Source: Candidatus Thorarchaeota archaeon
GTDB lineage: Archaea > Asgardarchaeota > Thorarchaeia > Thorarchaeales > Thorarchaeaceae
Direction of reading: 5' to 3'
Assembly (NCBI GenBank): GCA_011364905.1
Contig: RDNZ01000001.1
Span: 130,803 to 194,802 of the forward strand
Length of the DNA stretch: 64,000 nt
Shown here: in pieces, positions 14,679-38,753 of the stretch
Layout of the letters: each line of letters begins with the position of its first letter
Position numbering within the stretch: the stretch's first letter is position 1
Made by a program: the position numbers and the translations under genes
The notes under the pieces: generated by a model
Seen by the model: the letters and a program-made list of their open reading frames with translations, nothing else
Told to the model about the DNA's origin: nothing
The model's database searches: none

Positions 14679-15563
14679 TCATTTCAATGATTTAACGAAG
14701 TTGTCTGCACAGGTCTCTGAACAGAAGGACTGAGATTTCCCTTCCACGTTTCTCAAAATCATTTCGCCTTTCTCTATAGAGTCACCGCAGTACGAACAAA
14801 CTGCATCCATGTCTGTTGTATTTCCACAGCAAGGAGTGAGAATAACATCTTTGATCTCCTTTTGGATACCAAGAAACTCGTCATTATCAGAGAGGAAGAT
14901 GTATGCAAGTCCTTGGAGCAAGTCACTCAAAGCGGTGGATTCGATATCGACATCCTTCATTTGAGTCGCTAGATACTCCATCGTTTCATCAACCATTTCA
15001 ATCTGCCGCAGCATAAGGTCTTCCAGATGTCCCCAATCTTTTTCCTTCATGTCGACATTTAGGCCATCTTTGAAAAGCTTGAAGTATGAACCTACAACAT
15101 CGCCGCTCATCTTCGAGTCAATGATAATGAAGACTTTCGCTGTACGTCTATAGTAAATCCCTCGACGACTCTTACTATCGTCTTCATCTTTTTGAGAGAA
15201 TTCCTCCACAAGACCTTGTTCTACCAGTTTTGGTAAATGATAATAGCAGTTGTATTTTGATACATCCACCTCTGGGAGATATTGCTCGACGTTTGCCACG
15301 ATGTCAGGCACAGTCAACCAGAAACGTTTAGTCTTCTTTTCCTCCACCACAGTCGTGCGCACCTTCGTGCCATCAGCCTTGATCGTTTCTTCTGTGGTTG
15401 TATGCTCTTTGATGCTCTCAGTTCCATACCGGAGGGCAACAAGAATAGCACGCCGAATAGGATCTCGAAAAGATTCGACAAGGTCTCGGTTAGTAATCAT
15501 GAAGTAACTGCGTACTTTTGAATCAGGGAAAACTGGTTGTGGTTCTGTGGACAATATTCGCAC
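14679..15563 (-). CDS. Winged-HTH (ArsR-like) regulator with C-terminal TRASH/YHS-like metal-binding motif
   Basis: DPIRRAIL...YYHLPKLVEQGLV...YYRRTAK; C-terminal CCG, CSYCG and FCSETC. Confidence 0.75.
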   Translation of the reverse strand: MRILSTEPQPVFPDSKVRSYFMITNRDLVESFRDPIRRAILVALRYGTESIKEHTTTEETIKADGTKVRTTVVEEKKTKRFWLTVPDIVANVEQYLPEVDVSKYNCYYHLPKLVEQGLVEEFSQKDEDDSKSRRGIYYRRTAKVFIIIDSKMSGDVVGSYFKLFKDGLNVDMKEKDWGHLEDLMLRQIEMVDETMEYLATQMKDVDIESTALSDLLQGLAYIFLSDNDEFLGIQKEIKDVILTPCCGNTTDMDAVCSYCGDSIEKGEMILRNVEGKSQSFCSETCADNFVKSLK

Positions 15564-32436: not shown

Positions 32437-32517
32437 AGAAAGGATGGAAGGAGGTGCGACCCGCGCAAGTTTGCGGTTTGTGCCAGATTCAAACAGTTTC
32501 GTTTACAGTCCTTCTCC
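32437..32517. repeat. Degenerate copy of the vhuU SECIS/terminator region (direct repeat of 33833-33917)
   Basis: 31 bp identical (AGAAAGGATGGAAGGAGGTGCGACCCGCGCA, 32437-32467 = 33833-33863), plus TTCGTTTACAG shared at 32498 and 33893. Confidence 0.9.
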
Positions 32518-33766
32518 TCTTGATTGCAATAGGTAGTACAATTAAGATAACGATGATGGGGATTGAAACTCCGACATAGATTCTGAGAGGCAATAGAGAT
32601 ACGCCACTATTCGTAGGTTCACCATTAGTAGTAAGAGGATCATGATTGATGTTGGACCAATTGAGTCTGTATGAATTTGCTGAGGGAACATATTCAGCCA
32701 GATATTCCCGTGCTTTTTCAACATTCAATTTACCATATCCAGATTTGTCATCCCATCCTTCGTCGAGAATATCTGTTGCACCCCAGACTAAGGCATCTTC
32801 AATTTGACTATTTGATGCCCATGGAAACTGATTCCAGAGAAGAACAGCTGAAGCCGCTGCTATTGGTGTTGAACAGGATGATCCTCCGAATGTCCCATAG
32901 GTAGCTGTTGCTTGCATGTAAGCCGGAATTCCTCCTGCAGGAGCAAGCAAGAACAATTGATTCCCATAACCGCCGTCTACATAGGACCCACTGCTATCGA
33001 ACCTACCAATACCGCGAGCAAAGGGAAGAGCTGTAGGAACGTCCATGGGATGCAACGGGTACAGCACATTATCAACAGCAACAAAGAATAAGGCATTTCC
33101 ACCCTCATAGAGTTCTGTAACTTTGTTTTGAAGGTCAACCAAGACTGGATCATCAAGTTCAATCCAATACAAAGTATCCAAAAAACTCATCGTGAAAACC
33201 ATCTTTCCAAAACTTGAACCCCACTCAAAAATGTCAGTCAATTGCTTCACATACGTACGACAGTACGTAAAATCATCCTCAGGATAGTTACCCCAAGACC
33301 ATACACTATACAGTGGAGCATTGACTATTCCAGCTACACCTATTCCATTGTTGATTGTGGAAGCTGCGACTGATGCCACTGCAGCTTCATGTGAATTATA
33401 ACTGACACTTGGATATGACAAATATTCTGAATACTCTGCATTCCACGCAAAACTCGCTCGTTCTGTGATGTTGAGGTCTCCATTTTGGTCATCGATAATG
33501 GGCTGTCCAATGACACAGAGACCAACTGCTCCAGGAGAATAGAAGGAATAGCCGTGGTCCCAAACACTGTGGATCTTGATAGCATCCAGATGCCAGGGAT
33601 TACCTATGGGATCGTCTGGGATGAATCCTCCTACAATAGGGCGAATACCAAATGTCGGGATTATAATCAGGAAGATTATCAAACCAACAAGAGCCATTGG
33701 CTTCGAAACACATGACTTAGAACTTGCTTTCTCATTGCTCACAGGTCTCAACTCAGATGAAACCAA
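32489..33766 (-). CDS. Divergent subtilisin-like (S8) protease with N- and C-terminal membrane segments
   Basis: WHLDAI, SHEAAVAS...NNGIGVAGI, LLAPA, GSSCSTP, G.DDKSGYG.LN. Confidence 0.8.
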   Translation of the reverse strand: MVSSELRPVSNEKASSKSCVSKPMALVGLIIFLIIIPTFGIRPIVGGFIPDDPIGNPWHLDAIKIHSVWDHGYSFYSPGAVGLCVIGQPIIDDQNGDLNITERASFAWNAEYSEYLSYPSVSYNSHEAAVASVAASTINNGIGVAGIVNAPLYSVWSWGNYPEDDFTYCRTYVKQLTDIFEWGSSFGKMVFTMSFLDTLYWIELDDPVLVDLQNKVTELYEGGNALFFVAVDNVLYPLHPMDVPTALPFARGIGRFDSSGSYVDGGYGNQLFLLAPAGGIPAYMQATATYGTFGGSSCSTPIAAASAVLLWNQFPWASNSQIEDALVWGATDILDEGWDDKSGYGKLNVEKAREYLAEYVPSANSYRLNWSNINHDPLTTNGEPTNSGVSLLPLRIYVGVSIPIIVILIVLPIAIKRRRTVNETV

Positions 33767-33841
33767 TTTGTTGCTATAGAATCAAAATTCCTTGAATTAA
33801 GAACACTCATCCCAGCAACGGATTAGCAAAAAAGAAAGGAT

Positions 33842-33940
33842 GGAAGGAGGTGCGACCCGCGCACCCTTGCGGGGTGTGTCAAGCCCGGCCCGTTCGTTTA
33901 CAGCCGAACCTTCATCCGCCGCCGGTCACTAGCTCCTTCC
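33842..33940 (-). promoter_or_regulatory. Eukaryote-type SECIS element (core 33878-33915) with extended basal stem
   Basis: Minus strand: AUGA-AGGUUCGGCU-GUAAACGAACG-GGCCGGGCUU-GAC, i.e. AUGA/GA core, 10-bp helix and apical AAA. Basal pairing GGAAGGAG/CUCCUUCC and GUGACC/GGUCGC. Confidence 0.85.
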
Positions 33941-34064
33941 TGACTAACTCGCGACCCTCATCGTCTACAACGACCAGATGAGCGCCGCAGGATAGTCAGC
34001 AGTCATAACACCGAACAACCATCTCAATGATGTTCAGTATTCCTTCAGGTATTTCGTCAGTCAT
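33912..34064 (-). CDS. vhuU: Selenocysteine-containing [NiFeSe]-hydrogenase small peptide subunit (50 aa; in-frame TGA at 33996-33998 = Sec23)
   Basis: MTDEIPEGILNIIEMVVRCYDC-U-LSCGAHLVVVDDEGRELVRKELVTGGG*; AAGGTG SD; directly follows an mvhA lacking this motif; SECIS downstream. Confidence 0.92.
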
Positions 34065-36314: not shown

Positions 36315-36557
36315 TCAGACCTCCTTCAGTGTGTAGACCATCTCGTCATTTTCTTCTCCGGTCACTTCGACTTCGCCCCAACGAAGCATCCCCAGTAGGT
36401 TCCAAACAACCAAATCAGTATCGTATTGCGTCGCCTCTGCAATCTTCGATACCGGGGCAGGTCCGCCCTTGAGGAAGTCGCCAATGGCTTTTCGTTGTTT
36501 GCGAACATCGCCTCGTTTTTGCGAGAAGAAACGTCCAAACATATTACTCAAACCCAT
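36315..36557 (-). CDS. Small winged-helix protein within the mvh operon
   Basis: 80 aa; I.DFLKGGPAPVSKIAEAT...G.VEV...YTL wHTH pattern; tightly packed between mvhD and mvhG. Confidence 0.75.
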   Translation of the reverse strand: MGLSNMFGRFFSQKRGDVRKQRKAIGDFLKGGPAPVSKIAEATQYDTDLVVWNLLGMLRWGEVEVTGEENDEMVYTLKEV

Positions 36558-37003
36558 TCCCTCCTTATTGGTCCAAGCTTTCGTACTTGTTCGGTGAGTG
36601 TCCTAACACCATCTGCGAAAACCTGCGCCTCTGAGGCACTCGCCCATTGAAGCCGCACCCTACGAGGATCGACTCCAGCCTGTTCGATGGCAGTCTCCAT
36701 TAGAGCCCATCGAGCCCGGGCTTTCAGATTTCCACTTGTATAATGGCAGTCACCAGGATGACACCCAGAAACAAGCACACCATCTGCGCCCATATTCAGC
36801 GCAGCCAGAATGAATTCTGGACTTATTCGTCCTGTGCAGTTCACTCGAAGAATTCTTGCATTCGTCGGGTACTGTATCCTGCTCGTCCCTGCAAGGTCAG
36901 CACCTGCATACGAACACCAATTACAGCAGAACGCCATAATCTTTGGTTCCCATTCTCCTTGTGAGTCCACAGTTTCAGTAGTTGATAATGACGTTGATGT
37001 CAT
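36548..37003 (-). CDS. mvhD: MvhD [2Fe-2S] subunit, Cys form
   Basis: FCCNWCSYAGADLAG, CTGRI and GCHPGDCHY. Confidence 0.93.
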   Translation of the reverse strand: MTSTSLSTTETVDSQGEWEPKIMAFCCNWCSYAGADLAGTSRIQYPTNARILRVNCTGRISPEFILAALNMGADGVLVSGCHPGDCHYTSGNLKARARWALMETAIEQAGVDPRRVRLQWASASEAQVFADGVRTLTEQVRKLGPIRREWV

Positions 37004-37004
37004 T

Positions 37005-38753
37005 CTATCCACCTCCTTGTATTGATGGTGAAGGGCATAGGAATGCCTCCACCATTGTTAGAATCTGATCATCAGTTGAGTGATACATCACAATAGCGCT
37101 ACTCGGACAAGCGGCAGCGCAGGTTCCACAGCCGTGACATTTTGCCTCGGTCACTACAGCTATTGGCGGATCTTTGGTTTCATCCATTGAAATCGCATTG
37201 TAAGCACAAGCAGTGAGGCATGTGTGACAGCTTGAGCAAAGCTCAGGAATGACATGTGATACAGTGGATTCAATCTCCACTTCACCCTGAGCCATTAGAC
37301 CCACAGCCTTGGCAGCGGCGCCACTAGCGTCAATGACCGATTCTGAAGCATTCTTGGCTGCTTGAGCGGCGCCTGCGATCATCACACCAGCAGTATGAGT
37401 TGTGAGTGGTGCAAGTTTGATATGCTCTGGATTGAAGAACCCATCACCGCTTCGGGTGAGACTGAACAGATGCGAGGTCTCTTCAACATCCTCTGGAGGA
37501 ATCATCGCAGATGCAAGAACCACCATGTCAGGCTCAAACTCAAGATCCTCGTCAGCAAGAACATCGCGCCACTTTATCGTGATTTTGCTTTTCTTGACAA
37601 TGACGTCAGGATATTCGTTCTGCGGGAACTTACTATAGATGACATGCTTCTGTCGAGCCATTCGATGAAACTCTTCATGCCCTTTACCATAAGTTCGAAT
37701 ATCCTGATACAAGACCAGTACTTCATCAACACGGTCTCTCAAATCAGCAGCTGCCTTTGCCGTGGCTGAGCAGCAGTGACGCGAACAATGTTCGTGCCCT
37801 TTAACACCTGGTTGACGAGACCCGACACAGCCGATGAAGACAACCTTCTTCACTGGCTTGCCATTACTGATTTTCAGAAGTTGTTCACTACGAGGAAGCT
37901 CCTGAAGTTCAGCCAAAGTAAGTATGTCAGGGGACTCACCATAGGAATAGTAGCCAACTGGTTTGAATGGTTCAAATCCAGTAGTCACAATCACTGCACC
38001 CACCTCATATCGTTCCTCTTTCTCAGTCTTAAGATTCTTGACAGTGACCCCGAAGTTTCCAATGTAACCATCAAACTCAGAGACCTTGCTCTCTGTGAGG
38101 ATTTTGATTCGTTTGTTTTTCTTGACGTCTCGAATAAGTGGTTTGATTATATCAGCTCCGGTTTCATCAGAGGGGAAAAGATGAGTCCATTTGGCAACAT
38201 TACCACCAAGCTTCGGTGTCTTTTCGACAAGCAACACATCAAATCCACGGTCTGCTATGTCTAATGATGCTCTAAGACCAGCAATACCACCGCCAACCAC
38301 CAGAGTTGTAGGAAGAACATTGACCTTTTTTATCGGCAGATTTTGTAGCTTAGATGCACGCGCAACAGACATTCTTACGAGGTCTATAGCTTTCTCTGTC
38401 GCAAGTTCTGGTTCTCTCATGTGGCACCAAGATACATGTTCCCGAAGGTTGACCTGGTCAAACAGATACCTATTGAGGCCTGCCTCCTCCACAACTCGAC
38501 GGAACGTGGGCTCATGCATACGAGGCGAGCAGCTGGCAACAACAACTCGGTTGAGATTATGTTCTTTGATCTTCTCTTTGATGAGCGTCTGCCCAGCATC
38601 CGAGCACATGAACATCTCATCTGCTGCAAAAGCAACACCTGGCAGATTCGATGCCATATGCGCCACTGCTTCAACATCAACAGTACCAGCTATGTTGTGC
38701 CCACAGTGACAGACAAACACTCCGATTCTTGGTTCATCTTCTGTTCCTGACAT
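37005..38753 (-). CDS. hdrA: HdrA-like subunit lacking the inserted ferredoxin domain
   Basis: IGVFVCHCG, ASCSPRMHE, GGGIAG, CVGSR, CSRHCC, C-terminal ferredoxin; FPSDETGA replaces DCxxC. Confidence 0.88.
   Translation of the reverse strand: MSGTEDEPRIGVFVCHCGHNIAGTVDVEAVAHMASNLPGVAFAADEMFMCSDAGQTLIKEKIKEHNLNRVVVASCSPRMHEPTFRRVVEEAGLNRYLFDQVNLREHVSWCHMREPELATEKAIDLVRMSVARASKLQNLPIKKVNVLPTTLVVGGGIAGLRASLDIADRGFDVLLVEKTPKLGGNVAKWTHLFPSDETGADIIKPLIRDVKKNKRIKILTESKVSEFDGYIGNFGVTVKNLKTEKEERYEVGAVIVTTGFEPFKPVGYYSYGESPDILTLAELQELPRSEQLLKISNGKPVKKVVFIGCVGSRQPGVKGHEHCSRHCCSATAKAAADLRDRVDEVLVLYQDIRTYGKGHEEFHRMARQKHVIYSKFPQNEYPDVIVKKSKITIKWRDVLADEDLEFEPDMVVLASAMIPPEDVEETSHLFSLTRSGDGFFNPEHIKLAPLTTHTAGVMIAGAAQAAKNASESVIDASGAAAKAVGLMAQGEVEIESTVSHVIPELCSSCHTCLTACAYNAISMDETKDPPIAVVTEAKCHGCGTCAAACPSSAIVMYHSTDDQILTMVEAFLCPSPSIQGGG

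Follow-up and report, generated by a model that had tools for sequence, protein, structure and literature searches.

The overlap of a stop codon with the core of a SECIS element, together with a minimal-distance mechanism, is already published for the Asgard archaea, in 2016 and again in 2024. Mariotti et al. (2016; Mol Biol Evol 33:2441, PMC4989117) described that the AUGA of the Loki VhuU.1 element doubles as the stop codon of the gene, and explained by a eukaryote-like minimal distance why nearby UGA stops are not recoded; the VhuD genes in that study end in various stop codons that adjoin their SECIS. Huang et al. (2024; ISME J 18:wrae111, PMC11227280) catalogued the Thorarchaeia elements of frhA, mvhA and vhuU, reported that UGA stops often overlap the AUGA in Lokiarchaeia, and designed their search around this overlap. 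SECISearch3 gave no significant result on the Asgard elements in that study, and the Asgard archaea were reported to lack an SBP2 homologue.

The element described here lies on the minus strand of a stretch of 64,000 nucleotides (the window) from a Thorarchaeota metagenome-assembled genome, the bin of which is 81% complete. The gene order on this strand is mvhD, a small ORF, vhuG, vhuA and then vhuU, with a gap of 11 bases between the last two; Pfam assigns FlpD, Oxidored_q6 and NiFeSe_Hases to mvhD, vhuG and vhuA, respectively. The VhuA protein and its counterpart in Thorarchaeota SMTZ1-45 share 96% identity. As judged from its alignments, the product of vhuU is the Sec-containing C-terminal Ni-ligand piece of a split [NiFeSe] hydrogenase large subunit. 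The peptide aligns to solved large subunits of [NiFe] hydrogenases, at the C-terminal segment that holds the Ni ligands, and also matches the 27-residue VhuU chain, which ends one residue past the His. The C-terminal tail of the hydrogenase large subunit is cut off in maturation, and the end of the 27-residue chain fits this. The tail encoded by vhuU is nevertheless not free sequence, since the Cys-type methanogen FrhA has a similar one. The coordinates of all features are collected in the table.

Table. Features of the vhuU 3' end in the window, and copies of the SECIS region in the window and at other loci
Feature	Position	Strand	Evidence or remark
vhuU coding sequence, 50 codons	33915-34064	minus	start ATG at 34064-34062; comparison of 57 orthologs
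Sec codon UGA, codon 23	33996-33998	minus	motif CYDC-U-LSCGAH, kept in 57 of 57 orthologs
vhuU stop UGA, codon 51	33912-33914	minus	A33915 just before it gives AUGA
Coding hairpin, from Sec UGA to one base before the SECIS basal stem	33941-33998	minus	energy, recoding test, compensatory changes
Whole (probable) SECIS, three-way junction	33842-33940	minus	MFE fold, RNAalifold, covariance-model alignment
Basal helices, 5' strands, all coding (codons 42-49)	33920-33940	minus	covariation, synonymous constraint, alignment-free stem test
AUGA core, its UGA being the vhuU stop	33912-33915	minus	invariant columns; 55 of 57 orthologs
Helix II (10 bp) and 11-nt apical loop starting GUAAA	33881-33911	minus	MFE fold, RNAalifold, covariation
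3' GA of the core, expected to form sheared G-A pairs with the last two bases of AUGA	33879-33880	minus	conserved columns
Side hairpin (third helix) on the non-bulged strand, 5-nt loop CGCAA	33862-33876	minus	covariation, loop conservation, selD parallel
Basal helices, 3' strands, in the 3'UTR	33842-33861	minus	MFE fold, covariation, alignment-free test
T-rich run directly after the element, likely archaeal transcription stop (putative function)	33828-33837	minus	sequence
Decayed second copy of the SECIS 3' half, end of S8 peptidase gene	32437-32525	minus	without AUGA, without helix II
Extra copies at other loci	L019:4798-4934, L019:5368-5501, L011:5095-5230		
Other loci with copies	L005, L007, L012, L013, L016, L018, L020-L024, L033, L054, L065, L071		

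Genes for tRNA-Sec, SepSecS, SelB and a Sec-containing SelD are present in the genome; those for SepSecS and SelB are adjacent (G000:C16:16008-18674), and aragorn places the tRNA-Sec gene at 15150-15240 of one contig. The mvhD/vhuD gene of the operon (36548-37012, minus strand) carries Cys (FCCNWC) at the position where the VhuD proteins of Methanococcus and Loki carry Sec. Within the window only vhuU needs a SECIS.

The original prediction had placed at the 3' end of vhuU, on the minus strand, a eukaryote-type layout, with AUGA and GA on either side of a 10-bp helix that ends in an AAA loop, and not the methanogen type. The minimum free energy (MFE) fold of 33835-33945 reproduces it. Helix II pairs 33902-33911 with 33881-33890 without a mismatch and with four G-U pairs, the AAA of the apical loop lies at 33897-33899, and the conserved unpaired core consists of AUGA and GA. 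The predicted basal stem between coding sequence and 3'UTR is present as well, in the form of an outer stem (33933-33940 with 33842-33849) and an inner stem (33924-33929 with 33852-33857, plus three more pairs). The predicted side hairpin sits between the 3' GA and the 3' basal strand; it has a 5-bp stem and a 5-nt loop rather than the proposed 6-bp stem and 4-nt loop. That the core UGA is the in-frame stop of vhuU is confirmed in the sequence, as is the claim that the UGA of the 3' core (33881-33879) is in frame, 33 nt past the stop. The distance from the Sec UGA to the AUGA, put at about 80 nt, was measured as 83 nt, and the junction begins 56 nt after the Sec codon. The energy of the fold (-50.4 kcal/mol; z -2.49; matched by 3 of 200 shuffles) is just moderately unusual for a single sequence, and the case for the element therefore rests on the comparison of orthologs.

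In its design the element comes closest to those described for the Asgard archaea. With lokiSECIS it shares the vhuU family, the AUGA, the stem of 9-10 bp, the 11-nt A-rich loop and the 3' purine-A, and also an overlap with the coding sequence that extends so far that AUGA is the stop. The 3' core is AA in the Loki VhuU element and GA in that of Thor, and the loop begins with GUAAA instead of the run of A found in lokiSECIS. Mariotti et al. (2016, PMC4989117) describe the core stem-loop alone; the basal helices between coding sequence and 3'UTR and the side hairpin are absent from their description. The type I elements of Huang et al. (2024, PMC11227280) are built on an AUGA_GA core, with 7-15 bp and no more than two mismatches in the upper stem and a loop of 8-20 nt that is A-rich at its start, and the window element has the same core, a 10-bp upper stem and an 11-nt loop; moreover, GUAAA agrees with the loop start G[U/G]AAA given there for frhA and vhuU of Thorarchaeia. 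The context is that of the Asgard type I eukaryote-like elements: the element sits at the 3' end of a gene that has an in-frame Sec UGA, and the genome encodes the Sec machinery. Family-specific pairs of the lower stem are shared too, although the middle pair of that motif is a G-G mismatch in the window. The model of Huang et al. consists of two stems and an internal loop, and their paper speaks of neither a third helix nor a three-way junction.

Eukaryotic SECIS elements of form 1 (RF00031) have the same order and spacing of AUGA, 12 nt, AAA and UGA, as well as a kink-turn-type core, which is predicted for the window element too, and they likewise act on a distant upstream UGA. The window element differs from them in that its Sec codon is only 83 nt away, in its third helix, in a host without SBP2 (according to Huang et al. 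2024), the protein that binds the eukaryotic elements, and in its position: a eukaryotic element lies wholly in the 3'UTR, whereas here the 5' half, AUGA included, is coding. With the SECIS of Methanococcus vhuU it has in common the gene and the location at the 3' end, but the core is AUGA/GA, and neither the GAA_A bulge of the methanogen type nor its short upper stem with a row of three G-C/C-G pairs is present. The element was scored with an Infernal SECIS model, as had been proposed. The whole of Rfam SECIS_1 (RF00031) aligns to it, and the AUGA, AAA and UGA of the model coincide with those of the element, yet the score is 15.7 bits against a gathering threshold of 35 (E 2.9 over all families), so that the element is not a SECIS_1 member by that threshold; at gathering thresholds Rfam had zero matches in the whole window. 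A crude scan of the genome for an AUGA-stem-loop-GA pattern ranked the vhuU element first and also recovered that of selD; the other matches lie outside any Sec-gene context. Our covariance model R1 found the vhuU element alone in the genome, and is too vhuU-specific for a SECIS census. Two further genome matches to the 16-nt 3' arm (L003, L004), each with two mismatches, lie in ordinary coding-looking sequence and were discarded as chance.

For the comparison, 77 vhuA loci were collected from Thorarchaeota and other Asgard bins, 57 of which have a Sec-containing vhuU just downstream; the identity between the VhuA orthologs compared falls to 54%. The original prediction of an invariant TGA stop holds for nearly the whole set, A-UGA being found in 55 of the 57 orthologs (a count that, like the others given here, overstates independence, as the orthologs are related to each other). 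The two exceptions are L056, where a UAG stop is located one base before an intact AUGA element, and L066 (Harpocratesius), which has a UAA stop and no SECIS-like element within 400 nt of it. In the genes with the A-UGA stop the last sense codon ends in A, be it a codon for Gly, Ala or Glu. The distance between Sec codon and stop is 84 nt in 46 genes, 96 nt in ten and 81 nt in one. The base following the Sec UGA is C in all 57 genes and that following the stop UGA is A in 51, in agreement with the usual stop-context rule. On the evidence of these orthologs the A-UGA overlap in vhuU is not chance; it is strongly kept, and not obligatory for Sec insertion.

The structure is conserved together with the overlap. 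Among 55 sequences the AUGA and GA columns are invariant or nearly so; in the 3' core, neither the A nor the C after it varies, and over 90% of the sequences have the G. Both the side hairpin and helix II were recovered by RNAalifold from a MAFFT alignment, and 10 of their 12 pairs show compensatory changes; the basal helices were not, because the 3' arms of the distant sequences were misaligned. These helices were therefore examined in an alignment fitted to a model and in a test that needs no alignment. A covariance model built from 28 Thor sequences served to align 61 distinct matches. Although such an alignment is biased towards the model's own structure, 89.3% of its cells are paired on the three-way structure, against 39-48% with the partners slid, and compensatory double changes occur in 28 of the 32 pairs; none of 500 shuffles reached the observed values. 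All ten pairs of helix II show compensatory changes in this alignment, and the stem of the side hairpin is 97% paired with two compensatory pairs. The alignment-free test looks for the longest stem without gaps that the coding arm can form with the sequence 3' of the side hairpin. Measured in this way, the inner basal stem has a mean length of 7.1 bp, compared to 5.0 bp for shuffled 3' arms, while its sequence differs widely between lineages. The covariation proposed for the Asgard vhuU 3' ends is thus found in all helices. Pairing between the G-rich 5' loop and the C-run of the side hairpin was also considered and discarded, as the Loki-like sequences keep the hairpin while the 5' loop changes fully.

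The expected synonymous-site constraint in the RKELVTGGG codons is equally visible. Gly50 is encoded by GGA in 42 of 42 cases, Lys43 by AAG in 35 of 35 and Val46 by GTG in 34 of 35; the third position of the Thr47 codon is C or U in 32 of 33, both of which pair with G. In contrast, all six codons are used for Leu45, which lies in the bulge between the two basal helices. Taken together, these data make it very likely that the element is a working vhuU SECIS of the Asgard lokiSECIS or type I eukaryote-like class, the core UGA of which is the stop codon.

The selD gene of the same genome also encodes a selenoprotein (motif GUSCK), and it stops at the UGA in the AUGA core of its own SECIS (G000:C57:75001-75004). 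We compared 26 Sec-selD genes of the taxonomic family (the selD loci include L085:100-260 and L086-L113). All of them stop at UGA, and the preceding base is A in 15, G in ten and C in one. They share the three-way layout of vhuU: past the stop come helix II and GA, then a side hairpin with an NGCRA loop, and lastly a basal arm, which pairs and covaries with coding sequence. The overlap is close to universal in the Thorarchaeia in two unrelated gene families (vhuU 55/57, selD 26/26).

In the pentaloop of the vhuU side hairpin GC is nearly invariant, and CGCAA occurs in 31 of 51 sequences. At the level of secondary structure, this third helix lies on the strand opposite the kink-turn bulge, which is the topology of a k-junction. 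The k-junction of the TPP riboswitch (Wang et al. 2014; NAR 42:5322, PMC4005666) has the same topology, a resemblance in secondary structure only, and the loop on the bulged strand is longer in the window element (8-9 nt). Both sequence and topology fit a kink-turn or k-junction, with the sheared pairs and the kink itself as predictions.

A second structure is found further upstream, at the Sec UGA itself, and is not mentioned in Mariotti et al. 2016 or Huang et al. 2024. The hairpin (58 nt) has an MFE of -29.8 kcal/mol, with a z of -5.1 against dinucleotide shuffles and of -4.7 against synonymous recodings. Against the latter, z ranges from -2.7 to -6.1 over twelve Thor-type loci (-3.7 to -6.1 without L036); it is near zero in two of three AT-rich Loki-like loci and in L066, and -3.3 in L053. 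Six pairs show compensatory changes, and the variants with a 12-nt insertion lengthen the stem. The codons at 33950-33955 (minus strand) are fixed, with CGC for Arg38 in 34 of 34 and GAG for Glu36 in 40 of 40 cases, on account of pairing inside the hairpin; where codon 38 has changed from Arg to His (L022 and L036), the Cys codon that pairs with it has changed synonymously from UGC to UGU. The Sec codon of the selD gene of the genome has no convincing hairpin. As a coding stem-loop directly 3' of a Sec UGA the hairpin resembles the eukaryotic SRE and the bacterial in-frame SECIS; unlike these, it occurs in Thor-type vhuU only and has no recognizable factor-binding loop motif. Many genomes contain a second vhuA paralog (about 68-70% identical) with the same end point and no vhuU downstream (L038-L051, L075, L076); for lack of a downstream vhuU, these paralogs were rejected as a Cys control for the hairpin.

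In the window, direct repeats of the SECIS 3' half, with about 30 bases identical, lie on both sides of an S8 peptidase gene (32489-33766); they are at 32437-32525 and 33828-33876 on the minus strand. The stop UGA of this gene (32489-32491) lies about where the 3' core GA of the distal copy was. The copy at 32437-32525 has neither AUGA nor helix II and is no working SECIS. In 20 of about 53 loci, the vhuU 3' end with its SECIS recurs, in full or in part, as a direct repeat 0.5-1.4 kb further downstream; on the right these copies end at a fixed position near +83 to +88 from the stop, while the left edge varies. The second copy in L019 is 93% identical to the window element, compared to 85% to the element of L019 itself. 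The cargo between the copies varies as well: it may be a pair of small ORFs, which by eye we take to resemble a DUF433/PIN-like toxin-antitoxin pair, a small membrane protein, an ORF that by eye looks like an alpha/beta hydrolase, or the S8 peptidase. By analogy to the att sites in tRNA genes, the vhuU 3' end looks like a hot spot for insertion or recombination; no integrase was seen.

According to the original prediction, the element is folded while the ribosome is at UGA23 and melted when it reaches the terminal UGA. This idea coincides with the minimal-distance model of Mariotti et al. (2016, PMC4989117). The geometry agrees with such a mechanism, which we infer to run as follows. With UGA23 in the A site, the ribosome would cover about ten bases downstream, leaving its leading edge some 45-50 nt short of the junction. 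The folded junction would recruit SelB with Sec-tRNA, either directly or via an adaptor that binds the kink-turn. The hairpin at the Sec UGA, which abuts the base of the junction with no unpaired base in between, would probably assist as a pause or positioning element. On reaching UGA51 the ribosome would have opened all three basal helix segments and would hold the AUGA itself; with the AUGA inside the ribosome there would be no SECIS in cis, and the release factor would win. Each terminating ribosome would erase the signal, and the following one would be served only after refolding. As a corollary, from about codon 40, the start of the basal arm, a ribosome would disable the signal for another one waiting at codon 23. 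As a tentative extension, doubtful as a whole, we propose jointly that the Thorarchaeia SECIS may be a k-junction-type three-way junction with the NGCRA loop of vhuU and selD as candidate dock for a stand-in of SBP2, and that the translated 5' arm and AUGA plus the Sec-UGA hairpin, stacked in vhuU on the base of the junction, may form a self-resetting module that serves one ribosome at a time.

It is also possible, albeit rather unlikely in our estimate, that the element is a SECIS but that the overlap has no discriminating role, being a by-product of compaction that was frozen under double constraint; any stop so close to the element would then escape recoding. The UAG stop of L056 and the UAA stop of L066 are in line with this, as are the various stops beside the SECIS of the VhuD genes (Mariotti et al. 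2016, PMC4989117) and the acceptance of A, G or C ahead of the UGA in selD. Against it, UGA has been kept as the stop in vhuU and selD while nearly every helix position differs. Such conservation would, however, also be expected from the double constraint alone and is no proof of a discriminating function: the by-product account and the mechanism set out above differ only in selection on the overlap itself, which sequence cannot separate.

Two other explanations would take the recoding role away from the 3' junction. The strong and conserved coding hairpin, with its compensatory changes (including the Arg-to-His change matched by a synonymous one in the Cys codon) and an upper stem that begins about 6 nt after the UGA, might be the primary recoding signal in Thorarchaeia vhuU, the junction being accessory. 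We consider this improbable, since the AT-rich Loki-like orthologs keep the 3' SECIS while the hairpin is absent or at chance level in two of the three tested, since the selD Sec codon of the genome has no comparable hairpin, and since the conserved AUGA/AAA/GA signature sits in the 3' element; furthermore, the letters of the hairpin loop are dictated by Val codons, so that no factor-binding motif can be read from them. More improbable still is that the structure serves chiefly at the transcript end, as a terminator or stability hairpin, or in recombination, and not as a recoding signal. The T-rich run immediately after the element and the copies of its 3' part that flank cargo genes do point in that direction, but a terminator or att site needs no invariant AUGA, eukaryote-spaced A-rich loop and GA, and the full motif set follows both Sec genes examined. 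In addition, the covariance model finds no other copy in the genome, and the downstream copies decay, as expected of relics.

As the probable SECIS of vhuU, the window element is one more instance of the published arrangement, within a group of Asgard elements that have been proposed as a link between archaeal and eukaryotic Sec encoding. If the tentative reading as a self-resetting module is true, vhuU would contain a composite recoding module that tells UGA23 from UGA51. The overlap, the junction, the conserved loop of the third hairpin and the translated half define what a minimal reporter must contain, and they suggest where a binding protein might dock.
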